IMG/VR virus record: IMGVR_UViG_3300033146_003879
Coordinates: 118,990-182,989 of that record
From: a virus
Taxonomy: Duplodnaviria; Heunggongvirae; Uroviricota; Caudoviricetes
Strand: one strand, 5' to 3'
DNA: 64,000 nucleotides
Position 1 is the first letter of the stretch; the number at the start of each line of letters is the position of its first letter. Positions 4,785 through 60,478 of this stretch are shown piece by piece. A program made the position numbers and the translations under genes. Below the pieces are notes generated by a model, which saw only the letters and a program-made list of their open reading frames with translations, searched no databases and had not been told where the DNA came from.

Positions 4785-5144
4785 TTACTCTGGTTTTTCG
4801 TCGCCTTCGATGATCTTTGCAATAATGTCATCAAGAGAACCGGCAATCTTTGGATCAGCTTCTGAAACAACTTCAGCAGGCTGAACATCAGGATCTGTTG
4901 GTGAATCTTCAGCAATCTTGCTCTTCTTCAGATCTTCCTGAAGTGAGGCGATGATTGATTTGTCAACTGCAGAAATAGCATCTGTGCTTGTTTCTGGCAG
5001 TTCCGGATCGGAAGCGGCTGCGTCTACTTTTGCGACAACCGCGTCAACAACTTCTGCAAATTTAAGCAATACAGTGTTAATGTTTGCTTGTTTCTCCATA
5101 AGCTTTTGCACTCCGATTGCGAGGATCTGTGTCTCTGTAAGCAT
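4785..5144 (-). CDS. acidic helical protein, scaffolding-like; start uncertain (5144, 5156 or 5231)
   Basis: Asp/Glu/Ala-rich and predicted helical. An internal ATG at 5144 is preceded by GGAGAG. Position next to a Cys-cluster protein and the giant structural genes. Confidence 0.35.
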   Translation of the reverse strand: MLTETQILAIGVQKLMEKQANINTVLLKFAEVVDAVVAKVDAAASDPELPETSTDAISAVDKSIIASLQEDLKKSKIAEDSPTDPDVQPAEVVSEADPKIAGSLDDIIAKIIEGDEKPE

Positions 5145-5230
5145 TGTACTCTCCATTATGTACGTTAACGTCAAAACACAGTTATTATAGATACTGTAGT
5201 GTTGGTAAAAAGGAGGTTCTGTGTAACCCA

Positions 5231-5938
5231 CTATTGAGAGACGTATGTTACCATGGCATTTATGTCTCCGTTAACAACGACATAGGAGATATCGAAGTAC
5301 ACCATTCCTGCATTTATCATATGTACAGGAACACCTTCGACGAAGTCAAGAAGCTGATACTTTACGTGGTCGCAGTGTTCACTTGTAGTACGTGCTCTGT
5401 TCCCACAGATAGAGCAGACATCATATTCAACACCGCATCCCATAGATACGAGGATGCCTTTTTTCTGTTTGAGCTTCCGGTATATTGTCGGTGCCGCTTT
5501 CTTCTTTACGGAAAGAACCAACTCAACTCGATGTTGTTCTTCGTTGTAATTCGCATAATAGATGTCCCCAATACTCTTGCTCGGGTCGTCACTTTTGTGA
5601 AACATATAAACACTTCCCTTTTCCATGTAAGTAGGGGTAGCTGCTGGTAGTGTCTGTGTCTCTGACACAAATGGCTTAAACGGCTTCTCGAATACGGAAT
5701 CTCCATTATCGTTCTCACCAAACACTTCAAATGGAAATACCGCGAAGCAGAGCGCTGTGATGGCCCCTTCTCCTGCTGCCTTCTGTGCTTTCTCTACTTC
5801 TTTTATAAGGTATTCTGCGGTGGTCTTTGCTGCCTTTTTTATAAGGCCACATCCAATCTTGCCGTTACAAGTTACTGAGTCTATCACTGTTAGGTTGCTT
5901 GTTAGTGTCTTCTCTAGCATCAGTGCCTCCGTGAGCAT
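5231..5938 (-). CDS. hypothetical protein with cysteine cluster (CGVEYDVCSICG ... EHCDH); possible Zn-binding or prohead-protease-like, unproven
   Basis: 235-aa ORF. Cys/His cluster visible in the translation. Position is adjacent to the scaffolding-like gene. Confidence 0.4.
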   Translation of the reverse strand: MLTEALMLEKTLTSNLTVIDSVTCNGKIGCGLIKKAAKTTAEYLIKEVEKAQKAAGEGAITALCFAVFPFEVFGENDNGDSVFEKPFKPFVSETQTLPAATPTYMEKGSVYMFHKSDDPSKSIGDIYYANYNEEQHRVELVLSVKKKAAPTIYRKLKQKKGILVSMGCGVEYDVCSICGNRARTTSEHCDHVKYQLLDFVEGVPVHMINAGMVYFDISYVVVNGDINAMVTYVSQ

Positions 5939-6137
5939 GTTCCATCAAACATATGAATTATAGAGGAAAAAAAAGAACGCCTAATAGATAGGCGCTCTTG
6001 ATACTTGTTCTTACGTTAATCTGCGTTTCTGCCTTCGCAAAGAGCTGCGTGTAAGGCTTCCTTGCACACCGCATCAGATTCAGGGACTCACTTGGGCAAG
6101 GTGTACTCGCCGCAGTCCTGGAGTGTCCCTCTCTGTG

Positions 6138-7126
6138 TCCGGATATTATCCGGATACAACAAGTGAATTCTCGGTTCTAAAGTGCGCGCGCTGCAGGGAG
6201 CGCCGGCCTGATACGTAACCCGCATGCGCATTACGGGCAGTAATGGCTCTCTCGCAGCCTGGCGGGATCACGGGAGCAACGAAGGAGTGATCCCGCGGCT
6301 GTTCCCTAATGGTAAGTGCTGAAGCTGATATTATCAGCAGACAACCGATAAAAATTACAATCTGAAGTACATCTCCGGTTAAATGGATAGGCCCATACCA
6401 GGATAGTCACAGATCAGGATTCACGCGGTCTCGCGCGAAGCAAGAGTCCGTTTGAATCCTGACAGTGTTGCTGATATTATCAGCGAACATTGTAATCAAT
6501 TCATTAAACTCATCTAAAGAGATCTTACAGATCTCATCCGGTACCTGAAGACCCAGGTTAGTGAATTGTTCGGTTTCACGAAGGTTGAAGGGGGAAGCGG
6601 GATTGCTGCACGTTCAAGCGGATGACAAGCACTCCATCCTGCGGTCCCAACGGGACAAGCAGGCAGTGAGTGGTTGCAGCGTGCTTGAACTAAGCTGGCG
6701 CGACACCTTCCCTTCTGAAACAGCCACAATGAGCTAATTGGGTCTTGTATGAGTGCCGATATTATCAGCAAACATGAGTTCTTTCGTGTGCTTCTTCATC
6801 TAACACTTGGCGCCGCGGGTTACCATCCAGATAACCATCTGCTCCGCCGACTCGAGCTCTCCGAGGGATGCGTAGCAGAGTGAGTCGAGCTCTGGCGGGC
6901 GGCTCATTTTTCCGACATTATCGGAAGACATGAAGAAATAACTTTTGTACATTCGTCTAATGTAGAATCACCGCGCAATTGCAGCCCGGGAACTAGTGTG
7001 ATCGCTGCAAGCATCTCATGAACACCTTCTGTGTGCCGGTCAAGCGCGTAGGCAGGAAATGGATTATTTTCTGTCCCAGCGCGTGAGGCGCACTGCAGGT
7101 GTATGTGATTTCCGATGTTATCGGAA
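6138..7126. repeat. six dispersed 15-17 bp inverted repeats with an ATATTAT centre inside a 1.2-kb GC-rich non-coding island
   Basis: Copies at 6138-6154 tccggatattatccgga, 6324-6338 gctgatattatcagc, 6470-6484 gctgatattatcagc, 6755-6769 ccgatattatcagc, 6910-6926 ttccgacattatcggaa, 7110-7126 ttccgatgttatcggaa. Each copy is followed by an ACA(T)G(A) tract. No ORF longer than 85 aa is present, and those that exist lack an RBS. Confidence 0.7.
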
Positions 7127-7149
7127 TGCATGAATGTATATTTTGTCAA

Positions 7150-7165
7150 CTTCTTATACCATAAT
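7150..7165 (-). promoter_or_regulatory. copy 1 of recurrent promoter-like motif (plus strand cttataccataat; minus strand reads TGGTATAAG, an extended -10)
   Basis: Member of the 14-copy motif family. Oriented so that minus-strand transcription would enter the 5940-7150 non-coding island. Confidence 0.4.
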
Positions 7166-7177
7166 AATAATGGAGTT

Positions 7178-8332
7178 TTACTCGAAAGATAAGCCGTTCT
7201 TTATCGTATGGACAATCTCTTTTGTTGCGTTATTAGCTGTTCGGTAAGGGAGCTTGGTTATACGGGCTATGTCAGTTACTTTTACATTGCCTTCTTCGCC
7301 AGAATCAAGAATCTTGCGCATAGCAGCAAATACCTTTTTCTTAATAGGCTCTTTCTCAAACTCCTTCTCGAGGATATCCATATCAAGACCCATATAGCGT
7401 TCTTTCCAGGGGATATTTGTTGTGTTTATTGAGGAGTCATTAAATACTTTACGACGCTCCGCTATTGCCTTCTCTATGTCAGCTACCGGCAGACCAGTCG
7501 CTGCGGCAAGAAGGTTCTTATCGTATTCGCCTGTCCCGTACTCGTGTTCATATGCCTCAAATGCTTTGTCGAGATCAGACCACTGGCTAATACGGTGCTC
7601 CGGTGTATGGAGCATAGGGCCGTATTTATTAACATATCTGTGTAGTTTCTGCAGTTGGTTTGTTACGTGTGTTGCTAACTTCGCTTTGCTGGGGTCCCAT
7701 GTGTCGATTGCGTGTGATGCAAGACCTACTCCTTTTCCGTATAGAGACCCGTGACTAATTGACTTGCTGACGTTTATCTCACCGACACGTTTCATTATGA
7801 GGGGTTTAAGTGCCTGGAGGGCTTTGTCTTTTGAATCCATATTACCTGTCTCGAGATACTGTTTAGCCCAGTATCCTTCATTGTATTTCTGATCCCGTTC
7901 AGGAACAGGCTCCTTAACTACTTCCTTAACTACATCATCGATCGCATCAGGTATGCCGTCAGCAGCCTTTGCTTCTTTAATAAGCCCGGCTATACAGTAA
8001 GCCAATGAGGATGTTTTCATTATGTCTTGTCTGAGATCCTCGAGGAACTGATCGTCATCTTTATTCTCATCTAACCTTCTGAATCGAGACTTCGTTCGTG
8101 TTGGTATCGGCCCAGCGCTGTCCAGCGGTGATGGATCTATTCCCAACTTAGCTACGACACTCCTTAGAATATCGTTTTCTTGTAATAACCTTACTAGCTC
8201 TCCTTTATTCAGCGCATTAGTTGCTACATTCATACTCTCCGATCGGGCACCAGAGCTTGCTGTGATAGCAGCTCTCCTTCCGGTCTTCGCAACCGATTTC
8301 AGCACTGCTGATGGGTTTATTCCTACTACCAT
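7178..8332 (-). CDS. putative sigma-70-like / helix-turn-helix transcription factor (low confidence)
   Basis: C-terminal segment VTDIARITKLPYRTANNATKEIVHTIKNGL resembles a sigma region-4 HTH. Segment GLASHAIDTWDPSKAKLATHVTNQLQKL resembles region 2. Based on motif resemblance only. Confidence 0.3.
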   Translation of the reverse strand: MVVGINPSAVLKSVAKTGRRAAITASSGARSESMNVATNALNKGELVRLLQENDILRSVVAKLGIDPSPLDSAGPIPTRTKSRFRRLDENKDDDQFLEDLRQDIMKTSSLAYCIAGLIKEAKAADGIPDAIDDVVKEVVKEPVPERDQKYNEGYWAKQYLETGNMDSKDKALQALKPLIMKRVGEINVSKSISHGSLYGKGVGLASHAIDTWDPSKAKLATHVTNQLQKLHRYVNKYGPMLHTPEHRISQWSDLDKAFEAYEHEYGTGEYDKNLLAAATGLPVADIEKAIAERRKVFNDSSINTTNIPWKERYMGLDMDILEKEFEKEPIKKKVFAAMRKILDSGEEGNVKVTDIARITKLPYRTANNATKEIVHTIKNGLSFE

Positions 8333-8343
8333 TATGGCTCCTG

Positions 8344-9294
8344 TTAAGATCCCATGAGGGTATTATATGATGCCTTATAGTCATCGTATGCTTTAACGCG
8401 TTTGCGAGCTGAGTATATTCTAGGTATATCACTCGCCATATATCCGAGGCCAAGTCCTGCGACAGCTGCTCCGGGTGTCCAGAATCTTGTCTTTGCGTCG
8501 ACCGCGTCTTGCGCTTTCTTATCAATATAACGCTTTGCAAACGGGAGGGCAGCAAGCGTTGTTCCGGTAGCTCCGAGGCCGATAAGTTGGGCTAATCTGC
8601 CGGTTGACATCGCATGTTTTATCAGATCTAACTCATTCGATGAGTACTTCCTTCCATATCGAGAAGCATTGCGAACGTTGCTTCGCATTGCAGCCATACT
8701 TCCTGTTGCGGCATTACCTCGTGTTATATAGTTGCGGGCAGAATCATTCAGCTTGTAGCCAAGTGCCCCTGTTGCTACTGCTGCGAGCAGTGCTCTTGGA
8801 ATACGTGTCATTGCTGTATGTTTTGCCCTATCTGTCGCGTCCTTCTTATAATCATATATCTTCTTGCCACCATAAGCTACAGTACCTGCCCCGAGGGCAG
8901 CAGCCGCTAGTTGTCCTACACTCATAGATTGTTTAGGCATACTAGGGATTGCAGGAGCTGCTGGTGATTGCCCGTTAACATTCCACGGCTGGAATTGAGG
9001 CTGTGTGGTTTGTACACTTTGCTGCTGCCACAAATCAGTGTACCCTGGAGTTGTACCTACTTTACCTATGTTTGAATAGTCGTTTATTCCGGTGTTGTTT
9101 GCGTCGGTCTGCCCTTTAGGTGCCATACCCATGTTATTACTTTCTACAGCCAGTGGTGTGAGGTCTGCTTGCTGCTGGGAAGGTTGAGCTTCGCTCTTCA
9201 TGGTCAGTGATGCTTCCGGCGTGCTAAGATTCATGTTGTTGTCACTAGAACTCTTGTTAAGGTTCTTGACAGCATACTTGTATAGTGCTCCCAT
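8344..9294 (-). CDS. hypothetical Q/N/G/A-rich protein (virion or ejection protein?)
   Basis: 316-aa ORF in the structural block with low-complexity composition. Confidence 0.45.
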   Translation of the reverse strand: MGALYKYAVKNLNKSSSDNNMNLSTPEASLTMKSEAQPSQQQADLTPLAVESNNMGMAPKGQTDANNTGINDYSNIGKVGTTPGYTDLWQQQSVQTTQPQFQPWNVNGQSPAAPAIPSMPKQSMSVGQLAAAALGAGTVAYGGKKIYDYKKDATDRAKHTAMTRIPRALLAAVATGALGYKLNDSARNYITRGNAATGSMAAMRSNVRNASRYGRKYSSNELDLIKHAMSTGRLAQLIGLGATGTTLAALPFAKRYIDKKAQDAVDAKTRFWTPGAAVAGLGLGYMASDIPRIYSARKRVKAYDDYKASYNTLMGS

Positions 9295-9309
9295 TACGAA
9301 ACCTCTTTG

Positions 9310-9894
9310 TTATTTCTTCCCACGTCGGCGGTAGTTGTGCTCTGATTCTACAAGGGTGTTCACCATCTCTGGTCGCAATGACATGGATCCAGAATCAATG
9401 GCCGTCTGCAAGATAGGTAGTATTGCAGAAGGGGCTGCGCTTGTTGCTTGCGGAGCAAGTGCTAGGACTTCACCTACAAGGTCACGAGCACGTTTACTTC
9501 CGATTGCCTGGATCTCAGGTGATTTTGACAGAGATCGCACAATAGCGTCAGCTGTACTTAGTGGTTGATATTTTGCTGTAGTGAAATCGGAGAGTGTTGT
9601 CCCCAAGCCTTTTCCTGTTGCTTTTGCGGCTTCCTCAGGAGTATTAAATAACATATTGTACATCATCTCTTTTGCACGAGTGCTTCTATACAAGTTGCCG
9701 TAGTCACTCATGAGTCTTGATTGACCTGAAGTCTCCCATACAGGCGCTGCTTGTGTAATGTACTTCTGTTTTATAACATCACCGATGTCGTCAACGATAT
9801 CATCGAGAGCGAGAGCTCCTGCGAGAGCGCCTCCACCAAGGCCGAGTGTCAGTAACGCAGGTCCCATTTTCGCTTGTTTATCCATCATAATCAT
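9310..9894 (-). CDS. hypothetical protein
   Basis: 194-aa ORF, tightly packed within the minus-strand operon. Confidence 0.45.
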   Translation of the reverse strand: MIMMDKQAKMGPALLTLGLGGGALAGALALDDIVDDIGDVIKQKYITQAAPVWETSGQSRLMSDYGNLYRSTRAKEMMYNMLFNTPEEAAKATGKGLGTTLSDFTTAKYQPLSTADAIVRSLSKSPEIQAIGSKRARDLVGEVLALAPQATSAAPSAILPILQTAIDSGSMSLRPEMVNTLVESEHNYRRRGKK

Positions 9895-9928
9895 TACCTC
9901 AAAGTAAACTCAACTTCTGCCATTGTAA

Positions 9929-11794
9929 TTATAGTAACGTGACTGCACACTCGTCTTTAATGATATTCTTCGGGAAAATTGACTCTGTTATAGGTAGTAT
10001 ATATTCTGTAGTATATAGTGCCCAGAGTGGCATAATATCATCTATGAAAGACAAGTCACTCAGAACGTGAATACCAGCTGTGGGGATACGTATTATTACC
10101 TTCAGGTGGGAGTTTTTGATGAGATCTTCCCAGATATAAGTATTGTATTCCTTTATTGTTACTCTATCTGGGAGAAGCTTATACTTCTCAGGAGATGTCG
10201 TTGTGAATACATCGTAGTTAGAATCTATGTCTCGTGTGAAGAAATCAAATGTTATTTGTTTCTGATCGGCACAGGGCGGCGGTGCTGTTGTGTATACCGA
10301 ATCGAGTGGAAAAAAAGAATCGGAGAAATCGTCCCTGACAAAGTAATCGCCGGGAGAAAATGTTGCAGTGTTACCGTCGAAATCAAGGTATGTTATTGCG
10401 GTGGCTGAGAGGGGTAGATGGAACACGTGGTACTCTTCACGGTGAAGCTGGTAGTCTGTTTGTGTTGGTAGTGTAGTAACGTCTCCTTTGAATATAAGGT
10501 TGCGGTAGCGCTCCCAACGCGTGCCGTCAGGTGCTACATAAAGAATGTCGCCCTTTACGTATGTCTGAGTATCTCCTCCCCGTTCTATCGGGTAGGATAA
10601 CACTATTGTGTCTGGTGTTACACGTAGGTAGTCTCCTGCTGCGTGAGGCGTCGCATCGAGGTCAAGGTCGCTAGGCACACTTGCTGTTCCAACATTATTG
10701 CGGAGCATTGCGTACTTGTAGTGCAGTGGTACTTCACCGGTTACATTTAATGTCGGTGTATACACACTAGCGGATACTGTTGTTGAAACCGGGGAATAGG
10801 GGTTTATTCGTACAAGGTGCTCACTGAATGTTGCTGGAGGAACACCTTCCTCAATAGTAACAACGGAGTGGAATGGGGTGTATACAGGAAGAGTTGCTCC
10901 GAGTAGTAGTATTCCATTATTAAACGGTATTGTGTTATCGAGTATGTATGTTTCTCTATCTGTCCTCACCTCTGTGTGGGTAGGACCTGGTGTTATTGAT
11001 ACAATAGTTTCTCCTTCATAAAGTGTTATAGGGAGTCCTATTATCGTATTTATAGATGCTTCCAGTGCGACCTTTGTTGTTCCGTGATAGTAGGTAAGCA
11101 TAAGCCCTACGATCTTTCTACGGTATTCTATTTCTGGCTCAATATCATTTATATCTCTGTAATATACCAGAGTTCCGTAGTCTCTGTAGAGAGGCCCTTC
11201 TTTAAACTCAATTCCCTGAAATAGGAATGATCCTGTGAGAACAGAGTAGGTCTTACCTGAGGGGCATACAATGTCACTGTGGGCCGCTCCCTTAATGGAC
11301 TCAATAGGGTCAACATCAAACCGCATGTAGTCTGTGAAACATGCGTAGTTTATGTCCTTTATCAGGAGAACCTCAGGAGCAAAATATCTATCTGTTACTT
11401 TTGAGACGTATTTTGTATCTTCGTAAAAAAGGTCGAACGATCCGAGGAAAGTAGAGAAACCACCAACCGGTTCATAGTGTTTCATAAGTACATTTCGCTC
11501 AATAAGGTATTCTCTGTCAACAGGAAGGAGGGTATCTTCGTCGTTGATGTTAACGAGTCTTCGTACTGACACGAACCGTACTGCAGCCGGACTTGTTATG
11601 TCCGCCAATTGAGGGTTAATACTGGCTTGCTCTGCGATTATCCCTTCAAGGATGTCATTCATAAGAAGGTTTCCCGCTTCAACAAAAGCAGCCTCCTTAT
11701 CGAAGGCGTACTTTATTACAGACCAGTAGAATGGCGTATTAACGGGTACGAGACTCATGTCTTGTATAATCATGTTACACTCCTGCTGGTACAA
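9929..11794 (-). CDS. hypothetical structural protein (621 aa)
   Basis: Long ORF in the structural block. Overlaps the next gene by about 20 nt, typical of operon packing. Confidence 0.5.
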   Translation of the reverse strand: MYQQECNMIIQDMSLVPVNTPFYWSVIKYAFDKEAAFVEAGNLLMNDILEGIIAEQASINPQLADITSPAAVRFVSVRRLVNINDEDTLLPVDREYLIERNVLMKHYEPVGGFSTFLGSFDLFYEDTKYVSKVTDRYFAPEVLLIKDINYACFTDYMRFDVDPIESIKGAAHSDIVCPSGKTYSVLTGSFLFQGIEFKEGPLYRDYGTLVYYRDINDIEPEIEYRRKIVGLMLTYYHGTTKVALEASINTIIGLPITLYEGETIVSITPGPTHTEVRTDRETYILDNTIPFNNGILLLGATLPVYTPFHSVVTIEEGVPPATFSEHLVRINPYSPVSTTVSASVYTPTLNVTGEVPLHYKYAMLRNNVGTASVPSDLDLDATPHAAGDYLRVTPDTIVLSYPIERGGDTQTYVKGDILYVAPDGTRWERYRNLIFKGDVTTLPTQTDYQLHREEYHVFHLPLSATAITYLDFDGNTATFSPGDYFVRDDFSDSFFPLDSVYTTAPPPCADQKQITFDFFTRDIDSNYDVFTTTSPEKYKLLPDRVTIKEYNTYIWEDLIKNSHLKVIIRIPTAGIHVLSDLSFIDDIMPLWALYTTEYILPITESIFPKNIIKDECAVTLL

Positions 11795-12284
11795 GCGTAT
11801 AGGTATATTCCAAGGTAAGTGCAGTTGCGTCGTCTATGTCGAGTGCCGATGAAAATGTTACTCGTGAAAATGCCGTGGTCGTGCCGCCGTGGTTCACGGA
11901 TACAGCTGCCATGTGTTGTGTTGTTGCTGGGAAGTACCCGGCGGGTATTCCTATCTCAAAAACAACTGAGGCGGGAACTGCAGGATCTGATGTGTATGCT
12001 ATTGTTGTAGATGAGGACACGGTAAGTGCTCCTTCCGATAACCCGGTTCCGTCAAGAGGGATGTCTGCGGTAGGAGGAGTTGTGAATGTTGTTGCTAGGG
12101 GTGCTTGTGAAGAGTCTTCGAGCGATAGTGTATCAGGTGCCAACAATGATGCAGGGTGTGCTGTGTAGGCAAGGAATGTTGCAAGGGCATTGACAGATCC
12201 AGTTGGATCAAGAGCGTTGAATTTGTCGACTATTTTGCCATTCTTCCTGACAAGTATTCTGCAGCGGCCTATTACTTTCATCAT
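11775..12284 (-). CDS. hypothetical protein (169 aa)
   Basis: ORF packed between two large structural genes. Confidence 0.4.
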   Translation of the reverse strand: MMKVIGRCRILVRKNGKIVDKFNALDPTGSVNALATFLAYTAHPASLLAPDTLSLEDSSQAPLATTFTTPPTADIPLDGTGLSEGALTVSSSTTIAYTSDPAVPASVVFEIGIPAGYFPATTQHMAAVSVNHGGTTTAFSRVTFSSALDIDDATALTLEYTYTLVPAGV

Positions 12285-12286
12285 AA

Positions 12287-15200
12287 TTATGACCCCTTCT
12301 TGACTGTTGAATATATCTTAACATTACGCATGCGCTGTGTTATTACTACTTTTCCTGGGCGGACGGTGGTGCGTTCTTGGGAGGCGAACTCATCAGAGTT
12401 TTGTGCTGTTAACAGCCCGCTATTTACTGTGCACGCAAACTTATTTTCCGTGTCAGCGGAGTACATTATTGCGTCCTGTATTGTTGAGTAAGGAACTAGG
12501 TCAGCATCTGTATCGTGAAAATAGAGAGGTAGGTATCCTATCGATACCGTGATTGGCACTGATAGCCCTGGAATAGATCCAGCATCTGACCATTGTGTGT
12601 GGTCTGCTGCTGTGTCGCCTACTTTTATTGCAGCTCGTGTTATACCTGAGTAAGGTGCTGTAAAGTCATCTGACAAAACAGTAGGGTCGGTACCCAACAC
12701 TAAGCCGTGATCGTGTAGCACATCTACTAGATCATCGACTAGGTCTATTTCTAAGCTTATTCCTAATGATAGGTCAGCAAATGCATTTATTGGGGAGATC
12801 TCTATCTCGTGATCTAGGTTTAGTGGATCAGTTGCTGTGCTAGGGGTGTTGAGTTTTATGTCTACGGCGATCTGTTCGAACGTGAGTTCCCGCAAAACAC
12901 TATCCGACACAGCCATGGCTATTGTGTGTAGAGTTGCTTTCCCAGGGACAGGCGGTGTATACATGTCAGGGTTACTAACAAGCACATTGTTGTCTTCAAA
13001 CACAATGTCAGTTGCTGTTCTTGTGATTATGAGAGGTGATGACACATCAGGGTAGTAGGAGAGATCACTGAGTGTATCGTTCATGGTCATGGTTTCAAGG
13101 GTTGTTTCTCGGGTACCATCAACACTGGATATGGTAGGGTCAGCAAGCTGTAGTACGTGGAACTCTCCGCTACTATCCTGTACGGAGGCGTCGTACTGTT
13201 GTCTTATGAATGTTGCGCTGTAGTCTTTCGCCGCTTCTGCCAGAGGAGGGTAGGCTACTATATCTTTGTTCCTTCCGAGAGAATCATCTCTATCAGCAAC
13301 GTACTTGGTAAGTCCTAGGTCTAATACAGTCCTCTCGGTACCTTTATATAAGTTGGTTATGTCGACACGGGTCTCCCCTGCTGCGTATACACCCGGGGTG
13401 CTCCTTATTAAGGTTACTTTTTTTATGTAGTTTGCAGCATCTACGTTGAAATACTTACGGGAAACACCGGGGGATACCTCTGATACTGCGTATACAGGAA
13501 GTGTAATCATTGCGAATGGAAATACCTTTGTTTTGTTTGCAGTAGAAGTTGCCCCTGCGAGCTTTATTTTCGATAACAGCCCTAAACTTTGCGCAAAGGA
13601 ACCTGAACCTAGATCTGAATCTGGACTATCTATTTCACGATAATAAGTAGACATTCTATATTTTTCTGAAGTGGGGTTGGTGTCGGTATTAGGCACTGTG
13701 TTTAACTGTATTGGGTTAAATACAAAAGTGTCGGATGCGGAGGTGGGGTCAGTTGTAGCATCAGTCTTTGTGGCAATTATTGATGGGTTAAACAAAGCTA
13801 TGTGAGCTATGTCGTATTGGGGTGCGGATGTATAGGTTGCTGCCCTTGATGATTCTATTGCTGGGTAGAACTTCTCTGTTGTTGTTGTTGCTGTTATGTA
13901 ATCTCCGTAAGTCGTGCTTGTTAAGGACTCATATGAAATCCCGTACACAAGAGCTAGTATGTACTCAGCGGAGAACAGTACAGATCTGTTTTTCGCACAA
14001 TTACCTCTAGCGCTAGAACTGAGCTTCAGGTCAGTATAATAGTCAACATCTACTGTGAAGTTGTCCACCATCGCATCCGGTAATGATCTGTTTAATGTCC
14101 TCTTTAAGTAAGTTTGTACCAGAGATGTGCTGTAGGTTTTTCTTAAAAGTGTTCTGAATCTTGTGAATGTATCGATTGTTAGTGTGTCGTGCGCTGGAGG
14201 TGGGCTGTAGTCAGAAAGGCTCTCCAAGACGTGCTGTACGTTGATGTATGTGTCTATGTTTGTGGCGGCAGATGTGAATACAGTTCTCCGTAACAGTGAT
14301 GCCTCATTATATCTGCCAAATGCTCGCTGATCGTGGCCGTTGGTCCCATCCGATCCCGCTACAGCGGTAGTGTAAATAGAATTAACTGTAGCGTCAACCA
14401 CCAGGTCTCCTGCTTGTCCGCCGAGGCGTGCTCCGGATGATTTGTCGTTTATTGCTATTGTTGTAGCTTGCCCCATTGATAGATTGCTTAGGAGATCCGA
14501 TAAAACGACGTGCATTGACGCCTGAGGCTCGTGGGTTATAGATATTGTGTCTGATATATCTCCGAAATGTATGGAGTATCCTGTTGCGGTGTCTCCTGTG
14601 TGTTCTATTTTTGTTTCATTAACGCCGCCGTATATACGTTTTGTGGATCCCCCGAGAAATAAGTTCAGAGATGAGTATATTGACGAATACCCTGTAAACT
14701 GGTCTCCTACTAATCCATGTTCAGGGGACTCAAGTGCAGGTAGAGGTCTTCTCATAATCGCTTGTTGAGGGAGAGGGGTGAATGGAGGTAACCCTTCACC
14801 ACTATTGGTTGTTGTTATAGCTCCGTTCGTCCCTATTATTGTTCCACCAGATCTAAAGTTCCCTACATTAACGCCGGGATCTCTCACATTACCTATGTAT
14901 GTGCTGCGTTTTGTTGCTCCTAGTATGTCTGTCACAACATACGCTTTTGGTTCTGCCCCGTGGGCATTGGGAGTTATTATGTTTATGAAACCTGTTGGTA
15001 GTATTGCCCCGACATATACAGGTGTTGTTGGGCTAGGCGTCCCTAGTAACAAAGGGATGAGAGGCAGTGTGTATGTTGTTGGTGATATTCTTTTCCATCT
15101 ATCAACGTGTATATTGTTTAAGTCGCTCGCCAAATCCGTTACCTCAATAGAGAACCCAACAGCAGATACTGTCTCAGGGTTTATCAACAACTCGGTACGC

Positions 15201-17101
15201 TTAACTGAATCAGGGTACACAGAAGATCTTCTGTTTATCAGCTCATAAAGAGCGGTAAACATCTGATCAATATACACAAGACTATCTTTTCCTGGTATTG
15301 TTGTGGTAGCCTCGTCTTGTGGTACTACTGGCCCTAACATTGTTGGAAATAGGTCTTTGTATGGCGCCGATGGGGTACCTCCCCACTCCTCTATGGCGTC
15401 GTAGGTTACGTTTGATAAGCGGGTTGCACCACCCGAAAAGAAACTTCCTCCAGACCCCGTCGACATAACGATGCTCGTCTCCCCTGTATGGAGAAAGTAG
15501 TCGAGATAATCATCGAGGTTTATTACTGTTCCATCAAGGAATGTTATCTTTTTCTCAGTAACAGTAAACATAGGTAAGAATGTGTCCTTCATGTATGCTG
15601 TACCGTCGCCAGGGTCAGGTGCACCTGTGTTGTGGTACAGGTAAGGATTGTTCTTATGGGAAGGTTTGTAGATGTCCCAAACTGGTACTTTCAGGCTTGG
15701 GTCAAACGTAGGATCTAGTTCTGTTGTTCCAGGCGCCATATTTGCTATAGCGTGTCCTAGTGATGCTGGTATGAATGCAAATTGAGCACTGGATGATGAT
15801 CCGTTTAAGTATTCGAAGTTTGTGTTTCCGGTTGAGGTTACGGTAGGGGTGTCGAACATTGATTTTTGTACCCCTTCTCTAGCAACAACAAATCCATAAG
15901 TTCCTGTATTTATGAAGTTAGCGTCGTATTTGGGGTGACCGTTTATCTCAGTGCTTGTGAGTTCGCCTGACACATCCCCTCGAGAAAACAAGAAGGGGTG
16001 GTGTCTTCCGTACGTAGGAACATCACCGTCATCAAGAGGTAGTTGATCATCAAATGAAACAGGTCTACCCTCAAACACAGGAGGAAACGCCGATGCTCCA
16101 GGGATCTCTATTCGGACACTACGTGGTTTTATTGTGGCTATGTAAGGTTTTTCTTCTCGGTTCTTCATGAATGTCATGTTGAGAGGGGTGGTCAACAAGG
16201 TGGATGGTGGTACTACCTCAGGGAATATCTTAACGTGAAGCGGGAATAAACCGTCATTAAACGTGCGTGCTGACCCAGCTGTAACAGACCCTAGTGCAGA
16301 TAACAAGTCACCTACAGTCATACTTGCAATGTCACACACAATGCGAATTGTAGTATACCTCTTTTTATTGTCAATAAGAACAGGATCCTCAACAAACGTA
16401 CCGTGCTTGTCTGCCTCAGTATTGTGCTCAACGATAATCGAGATGTTGTGATGTACTGCGGTCGTAAATATATCAGGGTTAGCACCCCCCTCATCAACGT
16501 ACAACATAAGAACTGTTTCTGCGTCGAAAGGAGATGGTTCGTCAGGTGATAGAGGTATCGCATGGTAGTATTCACCGTAACCTCCGAGCCCGTAGTTAAG
16601 AATCAGGGTGTAAGCGTCAGCTGTGTCAATAGATCCTGAAGAGTCCCAGTTACTTGCTGCCGCAAATCGAACCGGAACATATTGTAAGAGACGGCTGCCA
16701 GGAACACTTGTTCCGATAACACCAGAAAGGTCTCCCGGTTTCCATACTCGGATATTCACATCGCGGTCTTTCTTGTAGTAAGGGCTTCCGTAGGTCGCTT
16801 CCGGTGGGGGAGGAACAGCCGCAGGATGTCCCACAGCAGTTGCGCTAGGTTCACTTTGAGCGCTCATATACAGTTGGATCTTATCGAGGAACAACCTATG
16901 CTCAAGGCTTGACACCTCACTTTGGTTAATCCCATGCATTAGGCTAACCATCCGAGAATAAGCAGAACTACCGTAGAGCTCCGATTGACGAACGGGGTCA
17001 CAGTCCTTGTAAAAAATACCGCTGTTCTTAATGTTGTTCTTTTTGTAATCGCGAGCCATGAGTCTCCTCCTTGTTGTCACATCGAAATTATAGTAGAACA
17101 A
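12287..17101 (-). CDS. giant structural protein (1604 aa)
   Basis: Uninterrupted 4.8-kb ORF. First gene of the minus-strand structural operon, downstream of an AT-rich divergent control region. Confidence 0.6.
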   Translation of the reverse strand: MFYYNFDVTTRRRLMARDYKKNNIKNSGIFYKDCDPVRQSELYGSSAYSRMVSLMHGINQSEVSSLEHRLFLDKIQLYMSAQSEPSATAVGHPAAVPPPPEATYGSPYYKKDRDVNIRVWKPGDLSGVIGTSVPGSRLLQYVPVRFAAASNWDSSGSIDTADAYTLILNYGLGGYGEYYHAIPLSPDEPSPFDAETVLMLYVDEGGANPDIFTTAVHHNISIIVEHNTEADKHGTFVEDPVLIDNKKRYTTIRIVCDIASMTVGDLLSALGSVTAGSARTFNDGLFPLHVKIFPEVVPPSTLLTTPLNMTFMKNREEKPYIATIKPRSVRIEIPGASAFPPVFEGRPVSFDDQLPLDDGDVPTYGRHHPFLFSRGDVSGELTSTEINGHPKYDANFINTGTYGFVVAREGVQKSMFDTPTVTSTGNTNFEYLNGSSSSAQFAFIPASLGHAIANMAPGTTELDPTFDPSLKVPVWDIYKPSHKNNPYLYHNTGAPDPGDGTAYMKDTFLPMFTVTEKKITFLDGTVINLDDYLDYFLHTGETSIVMSTGSGGSFFSGGATRLSNVTYDAIEEWGGTPSAPYKDLFPTMLGPVVPQDEATTTIPGKDSLVYIDQMFTALYELINRRSSVYPDSVKRTELLINPETVSAVGFSIEVTDLASDLNNIHVDRWKRISPTTYTLPLIPLLLGTPSPTTPVYVGAILPTGFINIITPNAHGAEPKAYVVTDILGATKRSTYIGNVRDPGVNVGNFRSGGTIIGTNGAITTTNSGEGLPPFTPLPQQAIMRRPLPALESPEHGLVGDQFTGYSSIYSSLNLFLGGSTKRIYGGVNETKIEHTGDTATGYSIHFGDISDTISITHEPQASMHVVLSDLLSNLSMGQATTIAINDKSSGARLGGQAGDLVVDATVNSIYTTAVAGSDGTNGHDQRAFGRYNEASLLRRTVFTSAATNIDTYINVQHVLESLSDYSPPPAHDTLTIDTFTRFRTLLRKTYSTSLVQTYLKRTLNRSLPDAMVDNFTVDVDYYTDLKLSSSARGNCAKNRSVLFSAEYILALVYGISYESLTSTTYGDYITATTTTEKFYPAIESSRAATYTSAPQYDIAHIALFNPSIIATKTDATTDPTSASDTFVFNPIQLNTVPNTDTNPTSEKYRMSTYYREIDSPDSDLGSGSFAQSLGLLSKIKLAGATSTANKTKVFPFAMITLPVYAVSEVSPGVSRKYFNVDAANYIKKVTLIRSTPGVYAAGETRVDITNLYKGTERTVLDLGLTKYVADRDDSLGRNKDIVAYPPLAEAAKDYSATFIRQQYDASVQDSSGEFHVLQLADPTISSVDGTRETTLETMTMNDTLSDLSYYPDVSSPLIITRTATDIVFEDNNVLVSNPDMYTPPVPGKATLHTIAMAVSDSVLRELTFEQIAVDIKLNTPSTATDPLNLDHEIEISPINAFADLSLGISLEIDLVDDLVDVLHDHGLVLGTDPTVLSDDFTAPYSGITRAAIKVGDTAADHTQWSDAGSIPGLSVPITVSIGYLPLYFHDTDADLVPYSTIQDAIMYSADTENKFACTVNSGLLTAQNSDEFASQERTTVRPGKVVITQRMRNVKIYSTVKKGS

Positions 17102-17294
17102 AACAACAACGCAAATTTTTTAAGCAAAACACAAGAAAAACATAAGGTAGAGAAAATGTCAATAATCCTATGTGCGCGGGTGGCGCGGTATTAATTCTTA
17201 CGCGCGTTCGCGCCGGCGTAACTATTCTCTATATATTTTTTTCTTTCTTTAAAAAAGTTTTTTTCTGAGAGGAAACTTTTAAAAACGTGATTTT

Positions 17295-17570
17295 AGTCCC
17301 CAAATCAACGTAACTACCTGATAATACTACATGCACTTGGGGACTACTCGGGGACTTACTCTGATATTCGGGGACTTATTCCTCCTTTGCAAAGTAGCAT
17401 TAGTTGTATACTTTATTTAGTATCACAAGTGATACGTTAGGTTTACTGTAGTATACAATCCAAATAATTAAACGTCTTGTGTTCGTGTTTTTGTGTATTT
17501 CTGTGCAATGCTAGTCCCCAGATTTGCCGAGTAACTCCCCGGATCTTGGAATAACTCCCCAAATTTACCC
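17295..17570. promoter_or_regulatory. divergent control region with about 7 GGGGACT / AGTCCCC repeats
   Basis: agtcccca at 17295 and 17513, ggggact x3 at 17337-17385, actcccc at 17544 and 17564. Lies between the starts of 12287..17101 (-) and 17721..20115 (+). Confidence 0.45.
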
Positions 17571-17720
17571 TTCTGTTTTTCGCCACTTTATCCTCTTGTT
17601 TATTTTTGTGTGCGGCATTTTAATTAGACGCATATTTAATCAACAAATTATTTTTAATCAACCAGTACTTCCCCTTGTTATATACCCTATAATTAGAGTG
17701 ACGTTATTTTGGAGGCATAA

Positions 17721-20115
17721 AATGCATAATGTAAAACCGTATCAAGTTAGAAGACAAGCGGATGGTGAGCTCCACCCTGTAGCTATAACGGAGAGGCTAC
17801 TCGCTGTTCGTGACAAACAGTACTCAAGCCCTGTATTATTGCTTCGAGAACAACCCTACCTGCTTGATGGAACACCTACTGTTGCTGTGACACGTGTGTT
17901 AGCAGTGAGTTCACCACTAACAGAGGTTGCTCCTACGGCCGTTGTTCCTATAGAGTCCTTTGTTGTTAGTTACACAGAAGGCATTATATACCTGAACGAG
18001 TCTGAGGTCCCTACCGGAAGTGATGTAAGTGCTGCTTTATATATAGTAGAGTATAGTGGGCTAGGTACACTCGTCAGCACAAGAGATATTCTCAGCCGAG
18101 ACGCTGATGCGTCAAACGCGAGTGACACAAATAGTGCTCTCCAGCGCTTTAACGTAACAGATTCTTACAAACTGGACCCCTCATCATATACGGCGTCTGC
18201 ACAAACAACAGCAGACTCAGTCAATGATGTCTTCTCCTTCGTCCTCTCCGGGGTATATATAACTGTTGCGCGCAATTCTACGGTCTCGTTTATGGAGATG
18301 GATAGATCCACAGCAACACTGAACGCAGTAGCAATAACATCAGACGCGATACCTAATCTAGCAGCCTCAAACCCTGCAGATATATGCATCATATCAGAGT
18401 CTGCTACTGCAATACACGACGGGCTTGGCGGCTTACACTTATTTACCTTGTCAGGAACCTCTTCCGGGACAGCGCGCCGCCTCAAAGTAACATCATTTAA
18501 ACTAGGCTTTACTCCGATAAAACTTGCGGTATTATCACCAGGGAACGACTCTATTATTGTGACATATGTCATGGGTAACGGTACTGGTGCTTATTCCACA
18601 GGGTATTTGCGCTTAACATCCGGACTTATGTTGTTTGATCAAGTAAACATAGACATAAGTAGTCACATAGATACCGGGTTTATTGATATACTCAGTGTGT
18701 CCTCAATACAAGGACCAAACACAACATTTAGTATTTTACAGAGCACCGGAGGAACAACAGTAAGCGTGACGTCGCTGTACTTCAATAGTTATATTTACGA
18801 CGCTCCTGCAGGAGAAGTTATAAGAACAGGAACCCTACCATTTTCAGGGAACATGTACTCCTTCGCCGCCGGCTACGGACCCGACGGCTCTGTTGTAGTA
18901 GCAACGTTTGCCTCATTTACTATGGGACCAAATCTCTATACTACAGCAATACACCCAGATGGAGAGTGCACTACCCTAACCTTCCCGCTGATGCCGAACG
19001 AACAGATTGTGAGCACCACCCGATCACACGGACTCTACATAGGTGTTACTCGCTACCTCGACGGCTCGGATGTGCACTTAAGAACAGCGTTATTCGACTT
19101 TGCAAATTATGAGATAAGCCCCCCTTTAGACATAAATGCATCCGTCACAATCGGTCCGGTTGCACACAGAGAGAACCTTTCTGTATTTACCTATGAATAC
19201 GGAGGCTTTGCCCAAATTATTTACTACGACAACCGCACAGCGAGTAACACGAAGTACGTCCTTGACTATGCGCGGTTCGACACAAAAAGAGACGACTGCG
19301 TACATCCTGACGGACTGCTCCAATGGGAAGGCGACGTCATTAGTGACGAGACTTACATAGACGATACAACACCAGGAGTCCAACTTACTCTGCTAACAAC
19401 ATGTAAAGACACAGAGATTGAGGCAAATTCAGCAGGAACAATCGAGGCTACCGTAACAGGAAAACAAGATGTAACAGGGGACGTCGCGAGCTTCAGAGTT
19501 ACTGCAACTATTCATAATGATGGAATGGCAACAACTATTGTAGGGACCCCAACAACAACAGTACTCGCGAGCACGGCTGGTGCTACAGGCTGGGTAGCGC
19601 GCGCATACAATGCAGGAAACTATCTTATTATCTTTGTACATGCAGACGGCTCTACAAACAACGTACACTGGTCAGCAGAAGGGTTTGTTGTTAAAACAGA
19701 ACTACCTGCAGTTTACACACCAGGAAGCCTTGCTGTATGGGAAGGAGAGACGACAACAGATGAAACTTACGTCAACGATACGACACCAGGAACAAAGTTC
19801 ACATTAGTGCCGGCATCAACAGTAGATACACTAGCGAGTGGTGAGATTGCCAACGTATCAGCTGTAGTTACTGCCGCATCTGTTTCTGGTGAAGCTGCAA
19901 GCTTTAGAATAGAAGGGACTGTGCAGTATGACGGATCCACAACAATTCTTATAGGAACACCTACCGTGTCTGTTCTCGCAGCGTCTGCCGCCGCAGTTAC
20001 ATGGAGAGCACGTGTTTACTTCGATAGCAATCAGATCGTTATTTATGGACACGGGGACGGTAGTGGCGGCGACACTATTACTTGGAACGCCAAAGGTATT
20101 CTTATTAAGTTCTAA
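17721..20115 (+). CDS. tail-fibre / receptor-binding-like protein with internal ~130-aa domain duplication
   Basis: Start at ATG 17721 is preceded by ggagg. Two C-terminal repeats (TYIDDTTPG...WSAEGFVVK and TYVNDTTPG...WNAKGILIKF). Ser/Thr/Gly-rich composition typical of fibres. Confidence 0.5.
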
Positions 20116-20985: not shown

Positions 20986-21225
20986 AACAACCTCCTGTTT
21001 TTTAACGTGGTTGTCTCCACATTGATATATACTACACAATAAAACCAGAAGTAATGGCTCAGACTACGCTTGCCTAGGCCTGTACGTAACTTCACGAGGT
21101 CTTTCTCCTCGCACACAGACATCTCAACACCTCCTCCTTTGTTGACATACCATACATATTCTTATACCTCAAAAACGCAGTTTTTATATCAAAAAAAGAA
21201 ACCCTGCAACTTAAGTAACAGGGTA

Positions 21226-24158: not shown

Positions 24159-24499
24159 TGGTGGAGGCGGCGGGAATCGAACCCGCGTCCTAAAAACCTT
24201 CAAGATAGATACTACATGTTTAGTCCGTCTTTACTAAAATCTTCGGCGCCAACGGACAGGCCCCTCGAAGTTTCCTACGCTAAAGTTTTCGTGGCATCTC
24301 CCACATAGAAAGGATCAACCCTTAGTCTCACAGTTGTGCGCCCCAATTGGTGTCGTGAGCACCCCTCCAATAGGACGGCAGCTTATGCTGCTATGAGTTC
24401 AGTTTTTGCGTCTCTGAACGTGCCGCTTTTTACGAGGCCCGCGGCGCCTCGACATGCATCTATTCTCTCCGCGAATCCAGTCGAAACCAGGTCGCCCCC
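24159..24499 (-). ncRNA. ssrA: tmRNA (ssrA-like), about 341 nt, phage-encoded
   Basis: Minus strand reads 5' GGGGGCGACCUGGUUUCGACUGGAUUCG ... GGACGCGGGUUCGAUUCCCGCCGCCUCCACCA 3'. The 7-bp acceptor stem (GGGGGCG / CGCCUCC) carries a G3.U pair. T-arm GCGGG-UUCGAUU-CCCGC with terminal CCA. Internal putative tag frame ends ...ACU GAA CUC AUA GCA GCA UAA (TELIAA*). Confidence 0.8.
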
Positions 24500-29992: not shown

Positions 29993-30367
29993 TTACTGAT
30001 TCTTAATGTATGTCTTGATGACTTCGAGCGGTGCGCCGCCAGAAGACGTAACGTAATAAGACGGGGACCATAATTTCTTGTGCCGTCTTAATTCCGGGTA
30101 TAAAGCTCTGAGCTTTTTGCTTGTTGGCCCCTTAACTGCCTGCACTATAGAGGAGATTGACTCTGTCGAAGGGTATTCAATAAGGAGGTGGACGTGATCT
30201 AAATCGCCGTTACATTCCTCAAGCGTGATCCCCTTCTTCTTGAACGCCTGTCTTGCATAATATGCGAAGTCTCCAAGTATTCTCGGAGAAAGCACCTTTC
30301 TCCTATACTTCGTTACCAATACGAGGTGTGCATGCAAGCTGCTTATGTTTGTTCTTGACTTCCTCAT
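29993..30367 (-). CDS. tnpA: IS200/IS605 Y1 (HUH) transposase TnpA
   Basis: LHAHLVLVTKYRRKVL ... DHVHLLIEYP (HuH) ... LWSPSYYVTS (catalytic Tyr). Confidence 0.85.
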   Translation of the reverse strand: MRKSRTNISSLHAHLVLVTKYRRKVLSPRILGDFAYYARQAFKKKGITLEECNGDLDHVHLLIEYPSTESISSIVQAVKGPTSKKLRALYPELRRHKKLWSPSYYVTSSGGAPLEVIKTYIKNQ

Positions 30368-30389
30368 AACCCTAAGTATACTCTTTTGT

Positions 30390-31508
30390 ATGAAAGTGTC
30401 AAGAGCATATAAATACCGCCTTTACCCTACGCGAGAACAAGAGATTAAGTTGTCTCAGTTCGTTGGAAACAATAGATATCTCTGGAACTTCGTTCTATCC
30501 GCTCTCGAAGGCAAGAAGTGGGACCGATTCGCTGTTTCCAAACAACTTCCTTCACTTAAGTCTGAAATACCATTCCTTAAAGAATCTCCGTCTCAAGCGT
30601 TTCAACAATTGTTAATTGATATGGATGCTGCATTTAAGAGCTTCTTTCGGAAGAAACACGGATATCCGAAGTTTAAGAAACGCGGTATGCACGACTCTTT
30701 TAGAATACCGGTTGTGAAGTCCCCTGAATCTATAAACAAGAATAGCTGCGTCTGGATACCAAAATTGGGTTTTGTGGAACTGCGTTTGTCGCGTGAGGTG
30801 AGAGGAGAAGCGAAGTCTATCACTGTGTCTCGGAGAGCGGGAAAATGGTTTGTCTCAATATTGACGAAAAGCGAGATGCAGGAAACAGGCGGAAAGACAG
30901 GAAATAGTGTAGGAATTGATCTCGGCGTTAAACACTTCGCGACAACGTCGGGCGGAAAGCATATACATGCTCCAGAGGAAAGAGTGCGCTATTTAGAGAA
31001 GAGAATAGAGCGCATGCAGAGGAAAGTCAGTAGAGCGAAGAAAGGATCAAGCAACAGAAGCAAGTTGCGTCTTAAATTAAGTAGACTCCACTTAACTCTC
31101 GCGAATGTGAAAGAAGACTTCTTGCACAAGGTGAGCACACAGTTAATCAAGAACCACGATTTACTTGTGCTCGAAGACCTTGGTGTAAAGGAGATGACAG
31201 AAGCAGGAGCGAGAAAAGCGAAGTTAAATAGAGCAATCTTGCGTCAAGGTTGGTATAAATTTAGGACTTTACTTGAGTATAAGAGTATGTGGTATGGCTG
31301 TGCCGTAGTGTTCGTCCCGCCTCAATTCACGAGTCAGCGCTGTAGCGAATGCGGGAATATAAACGCAGCAAACAGAAAGACACAATCGTCATTTAAATGC
31401 CTTTCGTGTGGCCATACTGAAAACGCTGATATAAACGCAGCTAAGAACATTTTCACCGTCGGGCAGACGGGTAGAGCCTTTGGAGACGCCGCGCTAGCGG
31501 GTCGATGA
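30390..31508 (+). CDS. tnpB: TnpB (OrfB, RuvC-like, RNA-guided nuclease family)
   Basis: N-terminus KVSRAYKYRLYPTREQ, GIDLGVKHFATTSGG (RuvC-I), C-terminal zinc finger CSECG...CLSCGH, DINAAKNI. Confidence 0.85.
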   Translation: MKVSRAYKYRLYPTREQEIKLSQFVGNNRYLWNFVLSALEGKKWDRFAVSKQLPSLKSEIPFLKESPSQAFQQLLIDMDAAFKSFFRKKHGYPKFKKRGMHDSFRIPVVKSPESINKNSCVWIPKLGFVELRLSREVRGEAKSITVSRRAGKWFVSILTKSEMQETGGKTGNSVGIDLGVKHFATTSGGKHIHAPEERVRYLEKRIERMQRKVSRAKKGSSNRSKLRLKLSRLHLTLANVKEDFLHKVSTQLIKNHDLLVLEDLGVKEMTEAGARKAKLNRAILRQGWYKFRTLLEYKSMWYGCAVVFVPPQFTSQRCSECGNINAANRKTQSSFKCLSCGHTENADINAAKNIFTVGQTGRAFGDAALAGR

Positions 31509-46578: not shown

Positions 46579-46594
46579 AATCTTATACCATAAA
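46579..46594 (-). promoter_or_regulatory. recurrent promoter-like motif, copy 6 (divergent region; a separate TATAAT + GGAGG serves the + gene)
   Basis: cttataccataaacaccctccTATAATttac. Confidence 0.4.
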
Positions 46595-49232: not shown

Positions 49233-49248
49233 ATTCTTATACCACAGA
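49233..49248 (-). promoter_or_regulatory. recurrent promoter-like motif, copy 9
   Basis: catattcttataccacagaaaac. Confidence 0.45.
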
Positions 49249-52790: not shown

Positions 52791-52806
52791 ATTCTTATAC
52801 CACAGA
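52791..52806 (-). promoter_or_regulatory. recurrent promoter-like motif, copy 11
   Basis: catattcttataccacagaatctgaatttttacact. Confidence 0.45.
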
Positions 52807-60462: not shown

Positions 60463-60478
60463 TATCTTATACCACAAA
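60463..60478 (-). promoter_or_regulatory. recurrent promoter-like motif, copy 14
   Basis: cttataccacaaacaac, 35 nt upstream of the MTase start. Confidence 0.45.

Follow-up and report, generated by a model that had tools for sequence, protein, structure and literature searches.

The 64,000-nucleotide window analyzed here, taken from a 182,989-bp JGI contig of a tailed phage (Caudoviricetes; IMG/VR record IMGVR_UViG_3300033146_003879), carries an array of seven short, oriented and helically phased elements in the divergent intergenic gap at positions 17060–17721. Judged by its sequence, the locus is almost certainly a platform on which a DNA-binding protein docks, and our best guess is that it serves as a single-copy, cis-acting site of nucleoprotein assembly rather than as a promoter. 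Among the specific functions considered, we tentatively favor a replication origin that combines iterons with an unwinding element, with a probability of about 0.3. Protein binding and every functional step proposed below are inferred.

Motif searches over both strands of the window returned 17 matches to GGGGAST, seven of them inside positions 17295–17560. The other ten are all isolated, and no second cluster of the motif occurs in the 64 kb. At the background rate set by these ten sites, 0.042 sites are expected per 266 bp, and the Poisson probability of finding seven or more is 4e-14. The clustering of seven elements described in a first-pass annotation of this DNA is therefore well founded. 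Some of the positions it gave (17337, 17353, 17373 and 17544/17564) are shifted by 2–10 nt. It had also presented all seven elements as GGGGACT or its complement. Five are exact copies of this heptamer, which occurs 10 times in the window (five at the array locus), but the last two are one-base variants, GGGGAGT (ACTCCCC on the plus strand). The similarity extends beyond the heptamer to an asymmetric consensus of 16 bp, AYYYGGGGASTTAYTC, common to all seven sites. A 16-nt weight matrix derived from the seven sites themselves scores them at 16.6–22.7 bits and the next best position in the 64 kb, on either strand, at 13.4 bits, with high-scoring sites confined to one gap.

Six of the seven sites form two arrays of three that converge on an AT-rich core of approximately 130 bp. 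The sites of the left array (sites 2–4, 17335–17381, plus strand; 16.6–22.7 bits) all point right and have GGGGACT cores at 17339–17345 (site 2, ACTTGGGGACTA, with the aligned copy listed as ACTTGGGGACTACTCG), 17350–17356 (site 3, ACTCGGGGACTTACTC) and 17370–17376 (site 4, ATTCGGGGACTTATTC). Those of the right array (sites 5–7, 17508–17567, minus strand; 18.0–21.6 bits) all point left, with cores at 17513–17519 (site 5, GGGGACT), 17534–17540 (site 6, GGGGAGT) and 17554–17560 (site 7, GGGGAGT); their extended copies, written in one orientation, are ATCTGGGGACTAGCAT, ATCCGGGGAGTTACTC and ATTTGGGGAGTTATTC. Spacing is 11 and 20 bp in the left array and 21 and 20 bp in the right, corresponding to one or two helical turns. 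Site 1 (core at 17295–17301, minus strand, GGGGACT; extended sequence ATTTGGGGACTAAAAT, 19.0 bits) is inverted relative to sites 2–4. It points left and makes a divergent pair with site 2.

The gap that houses the sites is 662 bp long and has a GC content of 36%, compared with approximately 45% for the window, which makes it the longest and most AT-rich truly non-coding gap of the stretch. It lies between start codons at 17059 (minus strand) and 17722 (plus strand), in agreement with the earlier placement of the array in AT-rich DNA between divergent genes. The other three divergent gaps measure 104–306 bp, and one of them, of 179 bp, holds a divergent promoter pair. The core between the two arrays (17383–17507) has 25–33% GC in 40-bp windows and carries a second motif set, four copies of GTATNAC, the palindrome GTATCACAAGTGATAC included. 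Its elements are the palindrome CTTTGCAAAG (17385–17394), TTGTATAC (17404–17411), the palindrome GTATCAC-AA-GTGATAC with its 2-bp spacer (17420–17435) and GTATACAA (17451–17458).

Two further elements lie to the left of the arrays. An extremely AT-rich tract (17220–17294) adjoins site 1 and is a candidate unwinding or bending element. Its GC content drops to 15% at 17220–17269, where the free energy (dG) of −1.03 kcal/mol/bp places it among the approximately 15 least stable 40-mers sampled across the window, and the tract holds two TTTAAAAA(A/C)GT copies 30 bp apart. Bordering this tract is a GC-rich dyad (17173–17218; TGCGCGGGTGGCGCGG ... CGCGCGTTCGCGCCGGCG; −20.7 kcal/mol, z −2.2), a real element that had first been noted at 17166–17218. 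The dyad is unique within the window and does not look like a canonical terminator.

Neither translation nor a structured RNA is a likely explanation of the repeats. No small open reading frame (ORF) in the gap looks coding, and since the distances between the repeats are not multiples of three, the copies do not share one frame of the small ORFs. A 47-aa ORF with a GTG start (17443–17586, minus strand) and an AGAGGA sequence resembling a Shine-Dalgarno site overlaps the right array and was judged non-coding. An Rfam search of the gap region returned no family. We discarded an RNA role, as the whole inverted repeat folds only modestly better than shuffled sequences (z = −2.9, single strand). 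Furthermore, the arrays would be untranscribed if the promoters of the flanking genes are the boxes described next.

The octamer CTATAATT, which resembles a −10 box, occurs seven times in the window (5956, 9927, 17086 and 57820 on the minus strand; 17687, 46602 and 54077 on the plus strand), always in the correct orientation and 24–35 nt upstream of a start codon preceded by a Shine-Dalgarno sequence. One copy (17086–17093, minus strand) stands 26 nt before the ATG of the left flanking gene, which encodes a protein of 1590 aa, and another (17687–17694, plus strand) stands 27 nt before the ATG of the right flanking gene, which encodes a protein of 797 aa. The box is kept as CTATAATA (2469–2476) in the only detectable relative of the phage in the collections searched, a 4635-bp contig (ENA ERZ23498500, scaffold_46054; hereafter L058), at the equivalent position upstream of the gene that follows the homologue of a 621-aa protein of the window. 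CTATAATT probably defines a −10-only, late-type promoter class, and these boxes are most likely the promoters of both flanking genes. A sigma-70 scan of the gap was negative, and an early-promoter weight matrix scored no better than −4.2 bits in the gap, compared with at least 30 bits at real sites.

The first-pass annotation had proposed that the repeats are a late promoter or an array of activator sites controlling both divergent transcripts. What holds of this proposal is a non-random, oriented and helically phased array of the kind that proteins bind, placed between divergent genes. With transcription starts inferred from the CTATAATT boxes, the right array lies 123–175 bp and the left array 200–295 bp away, beyond the approximately 100 bp expected of a promoter element. 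The predicted enrichment upstream of other late genes is not found in the third of the genome that could be read, where the other five CTATAATT boxes have no GGGGAST within approximately 450 bp. We rejected a late promoter or a general late activator because each flanking gene has its own proximal box, the other CTATAATT boxes lack the motif and the gap contains no early promoter. As the promoters probably sit at the boxes, the approximately 590 bp between them need another explanation.

A motif distribution confined to a single locus is as expected of an origin or a packaging site, not of a promoter element. Furthermore, the locus has the helically phased repeats (11, 20, 21 and 20 bp apart) and the adjacent AT-rich DNA (a 15% GC tract and a core of 25–33% GC) that characterize iteron origins. 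In an origin of this type, a sequence-specific and probably phage-encoded protein would bind the 16-bp AYYYGGGGASTTAYTC cooperatively, and the spacing of one or two turns would align the bound proteins on one face of the DNA. The two arrays would act as initiator iterons that face each other across approximately 130 bp of deformable AT-rich DNA with its four GTATNAC elements. Oligomers assembled on both arrays and on site 1 could then bend or loop the core, passing stress to the 15% GC tract (17220–17294) or to the core itself and promoting melting. The GC-rich dyad would serve as a boundary, and the two outward-firing promoters would supply negative supercoiling that aids melting. Of the functions compared, an origin accounts for the largest number of features of the locus, namely its phasing, unwinding-type tract, boundary, single-copy nature and position between outward promoters.

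Iterons of plasmid and lambda origins are typically spaced by one or two helical turns. The locus shares with iteron and viral origins (lambda ori, the origins of P1, F and pSC101, oriS and oriL of herpes simplex virus 1 (HSV-1) and the simian virus 40 core) the short asymmetric sites, this spacing, a low-stability AT-rich segment and a single-copy location between divergent transcription units. It differs from them in having no initiator gene nearby, and it contains no DnaA boxes. In HSV-1 oriS, an AT-rich stretch separates Box I from Box II, and a further box, Box III, is palindromic to the first (PMC13458718). The phage locus likewise places inverted sites around an AT-rich center and an extra inverted site beside one array, but the center spans 18 bp in oriS and approximately 130 bp here.

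Several observations weigh against an origin. We detected no initiator, helicase, primase or polymerase adjoining the locus or elsewhere in the window, most of whose ORFs are ORFans. The iterons of classical phage and plasmid origins are mostly direct repeats, and all are so in lambda and the plasmids compared above, whereas the arrays here converge. In addition, the same features are also compatible with a packaging site, a looping regulator or a centromere. Nor does nucleotide skew speak for an origin; were the change replicative, its direction (G>C to the left of the site) would, under the standard rule, mark a terminus.

The skew of the window was considered as evidence for an origin or terminus and then dropped. 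Between 17 and 20 kb, the GC skew of the plus strand reverses its sign, with minus-strand genes on both sides of the change. When 19 gene-boundary breakpoints were tried at four-fold degenerate sites, a switch on the plus strand at 17.4 kb gave the best fit for both G/C and A/T. However, a gene-class model of coding-strand bias with an equal number of parameters fits slightly better (negative log-likelihood of 2072.6 versus 2074.8 for G/C and 3472.7 versus 3479.8 for A/T), and adding a strand term to it brought no improvement. In this model, genes on either strand between 4785 and 20115 favor C over G and A over T on the coding strand, and the remaining genes have the opposite bias. Third codon positions at four-fold sites do differ sharply between the two blocks, with G>C and T>A in most genes outside the first block (20164–64000). 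The block of biased codon usage at 4785–20115 could reflect an expression class, another evolutionary origin or a strand effect.

Comparative searches centered on the locus found few leads. Neither close nor distant DNA similarity to positions 16000–19500 was found among 50,697 phage records, and searches with tblastn against phage records together with IMG/VR scans for homologues of the flanking proteins were negative. The 797-aa and 1590-aa proteins matched only themselves in 5.8e9 clustered proteins. An exhaustive HMMER scan of 1.84e9 representatives with the N-terminal 1200 aa of the 1590-aa protein likewise returned that protein alone. For the 621-aa protein, a single relative was found, a 618-aa protein of 58% identity encoded on L058. 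This contig is syntenic with positions 7800–12400 of the window (genes for proteins of 168, 618, 205 and 321 aa) and ends approximately 5 kb short of the gap. The counterpart of the intergenic gap may be present in the sample from which L058 derives (SAMN18200488). In the literature, the heptamer turned up only as primer and NF-kB noise.

We also scanned IMG/VR, JGI metagenome contigs and a single genome for each of 185,579 GTDB species for a pattern of two sites 20 bp apart. The scan matched one locus in IMG/VR (with relaxed settings; none with strict settings), 37 loci in JGI metagenome contigs and 19 in GTDB genomes, and converging arrays were present in none of these matches. The metagenome and genome matches are unrelated tandem repeats of 10 or 20 bp or chance occurrences, some of which overlap a sequence resembling a DnaA box (TTATCCACA, identified by eye in contigs L041 and L045). 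An unrelated bacterial repeat family was seen in three metagenome or metagenome-assembled genome contigs (L005, positions 2780–3560; L002, positions 7220–7300; and L050), where GGGGGAGTTAYGA repeats stand beside CCCCCTCTTAAG-N-CTTAAGAGGGGG hairpins. The single IMG/VR match (IMGVR_UViG_3300033143_000657) is an unrelated phage contig, which has three exact 20-bp tandem units with GGGGAGTTATT (also given as CCGCTACGGGGAGTTATTTA) at 940–1300, approximately 560 bp upstream of the terS-terL-portal genes. Several ATACCCCG repeats follow the tandem units, and the region is probably a cos or pac site.

A locus-specific regulator, either activator or repressor, is a possible if doubtful alternative to an origin. 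Such a protein would occupy both arrays and control the promoters at 17086 and 17687 from a distance by looping or bending the DNA. The arrays do lie between both promoters, and each has the same polarity toward its proximal gene, reading GARTAASTCCCC in the direction of transcription. The phased spacing also suits cooperative binding. Furthermore, a sequence resembling the consensus of integration host factor (IHF), WATCAANNNNTTR, is recognizable by eye between the right array and the right promoter box (AATCAACAAATTA, 17639–17651, plus strand); a second TTTTTAATCAAC repeat adjoins it. Oriented sites in divergent control regions are known for the Mu repressor (O1–O3), the CI protein of phage 186 with its FL and FR sites and p4 of phi29, and the phasing of the phage arrays fits a protein oligomer that wraps or loops DNA in the same manner. 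However, the sites of these regulators overlap or abut their promoters, whereas the sites here are 120–300 bp away and the core has no recognizable promoter.

The distances from the two arrays to the −10 boxes (123–175 and 200–295 bp) are also unequal, and the five other CTATAATT promoters of the window do without such a site. Other divergent promoter pairs of the phage occupy approximately 30–180 bp. Nor would a regulator explain why the gap holds a second motif class, the 15% GC tract and the GC-rich dyad. A search for candidates for the protein identified none. The product of the gene at 7178..8332, which had been suggested for this role, lacks any DNA-binding signature and matched nothing in Pfam, PHROG or PDB, and an AlphaFold2 (AF2) single-sequence model of it was uninformative, with a predicted local distance difference test score (pLDDT) of 44.

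It is unlikely that the locus is a packaging site of the pac or cosB type. The arrays would then be sites for the small subunit of terminase, with cleavage in the AT-rich core or the GC-rich element, and the divergent gap would mark the junction of the physical genome ends. The single-copy nature of the locus is as expected of a packaging site, and its GC-rich segment beside the sites recalls lambda, where GC-rich segments adjoin the binding sites of cosN/cosB and the R sites of cosB occur in both orientations. However, cosB abuts Nu1, and no terminase gene was detected in the 64 kb. Known pac and cos sites lie in or beside the gene for the small terminase subunit, whereas the neighbors of the array are ORFans. 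Large phages, moreover, mostly package by headful or from long terminal repeats. The phage contig matched in IMG/VR shows the same core and 20-bp spacing at a packaging-type location, but it was found through a search for the motif and offers an analogy rather than independent evidence. The pac site of P1 is a striking parallel. Its 161 bp contain an IHF site and the site of cleavage, with seven hexamers on either side in two groups, HEX4 and HEX3 (PMC10028697). The phage locus similarly has seven short repeats, divided into two blocks by a central region, and pac depends on bending. The P1 hexamers, however, are palindromic Dam sites inside pacA, while the sites here are asymmetric 16-mers in a non-coding gap.

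There is a slim chance that the locus is a previously undescribed type of cis-acting site, peculiar to a lineage of large lytic phages without sequenced relatives and recognized through AYYYGGGGASTTAYTC by a new protein. In one form, it could be a two-motif origin in which converging initiator arrays clamp the 130-bp core. It could also be a phage-encoded polar fork trap acting as a terminus, a form suggested by the converging sites together with the skew sign change, which has terminus polarity under the strand model. A centromere-like anchoring site could be a third form.

Three known types of site, an attP-type site, a plasmid-style centromere and a polar fork trap, are improbable even when taken together. 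Lambda-type attP sites combine flanking oriented repeats with a central inverted repeat. The extent (approximately 270 bp) and two-motif layout of the locus resemble this arrangement, with GGGGAST as arm sites and GTATCAC-AA-GTGATAC as the core. However, the central palindrome has a spacer of 2 bp rather than the 6–8 bp overlap of tyrosine-recombinase cores. Ter or fork-trap regions, for their part, have converging polar sites, as do the arrays described here. A role as attP or centromere is further disfavored by the gene content of the window, which looks lytic (ligases, GroES, tmRNA) and in which no gene for an integrase, recombinase, ParA, ParB, ParM, ParR, TubR or TubZ was detected.

Split iteron centromeres such as tubC of c-st and pBtoxis and parC of plasmid R1 share with the locus the blocks of short repeats parted by a spacer. 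Blocks of this kind define type III centromeres, for example tubC of prophage c-st (PMC6009700). The blocks are bound cooperatively into a ring or superhelical complex (PMC6009700). However, tubC is always upstream of tubR (PMC6009700). The repeats of tubC and parC run in direct orientation and cover the promoter of the gene that encodes the binding protein, immediately upstream of that gene, whereas no partition genes were seen here.

Very unlikely, finally, is a decayed, non-autonomous element of the miniature inverted-repeat transposable element (MITE) kind at approximately 17338–17561, inserted in the gap with three transposase sites per end: its three inverted sites on each side recall Mu, Tn7, IS21 and Tn402-type elements, its outermost sites give 5'-TG...CA-3' termini and its 224 bp are a typical MITE size, but it has a single copy in the window and no target-site duplication (GCACT in the left flank, AATTT in the right), site 1 falls outside it, the only transposase of the window belongs to an IS200/IS605 element without such ends, and no matching end pairs were found in IMG/VR, the JGI metagenome contigs or the 185,579 GTDB genomes, where all 57 pattern matches were unrelated or due to chance.

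The array is a sequence-novel member of a familiar class, that of iteron or operator-like repeat arrays. To our knowledge, almost none of the cis-acting sites of large and jumbo phages, whether origins, packaging signals or others, have been mapped. A seven-site array at a single locus with a clear consensus offers a handle on a cis-acting function and its binding protein in a lineage for which public data contain virtually no homologues. The result would be routine if the array proved to be an ordinary operator array.

The left gene flanking the array was first read as 1604 aa from a TTG codon, an over-extension of the ORF; its 1590-aa product starts at the ATG at 17059 (minus strand), which is preceded by a GGAGGAG Shine-Dalgarno sequence. 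The right gene starts at the ATG at 17722 (plus strand), with GGAGG upstream, and encodes 797 aa. Pfam, PHROG and PDB gave no match for the 1590-aa and 797-aa proteins or for the rest of the minus-strand operon, and nothing significant came from PDB sequence searches with the 1590-, 797-, 1585-, 621- (as a profile) and 384-aa proteins. The putative labels "structural operon" and "tail fiber" given to these genes reflect the size of the proteins, their richness in Ser and Thr and the duplication of a C-terminal module in the 797-aa protein.

The gene content fits a large lytic phage. We identified in the window genes for an NAD-dependent ligase, an RNA ligase, GroES and radical-SAM proteins, as well as a dATP/dGTP pyrophosphohydrolase, HNH endonucleases, a transfer-messenger RNA (tmRNA) and an IS200/IS605 tnpA-tnpB pair. 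Searches of the window ORFs, which are mostly ORFans and represent 64 of the 183 kb, detected no terminase, integrase, recombinase, replication initiator or partition protein. The tmRNA gene (24159–24499, minus strand) is complete. ARAGORN predicts the tag AKTELIAA*, and the sequence matches the full Rfam model RF00023 (173.6 bits, E 6e-69). In the IS200/IS605 element (29993–31508), tnpA (Y1 transposase, 124 aa, minus strand) overlaps tnpB (387 aa, plus strand; IS200_TnpB, E 3e-94).

We also identified a second class of promoter-like boxes. The motif GGTATAAGA (also given as tGtGGTATAAGA) has 14 copies in the window, where 0.7 are expected, and all of them are on the minus strand. A tGt precedes the motif, and TGYAAAAA often stands approximately 12–16 nt upstream; copies are found for example at 60465–60473, 52793–52801, 49235–49243, 21160–21168 and 7152–7160 (minus strand). 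This class is probably an early or middle promoter of the extended −10 type. Boxes of the CTATAATT and GGTATAAGA classes stand back-to-back at 46581/46602 and 54044/54077, in pairs that span approximately 30 bp in short gaps. Both classes (CTATAATT and TGYAAAAA...GGTATAAGA) offer a means of annotating the remainder of the genome.

Another non-coding gap, of 575 bp, interrupts the minus-strand operon at 5939–6513. It contains the best match to the 16-nt matrix away from the array (ATTCAGGGACTCACTT, core at 6082, 13.4 bits). In addition, the gap holds three palindromes that share GATATTATC as their building block, TGTGTCCGGATATTATCCGGATACA at 6134–6158 and GCTGATATTATCAGC at both 6324–6338 and 6470–6484.

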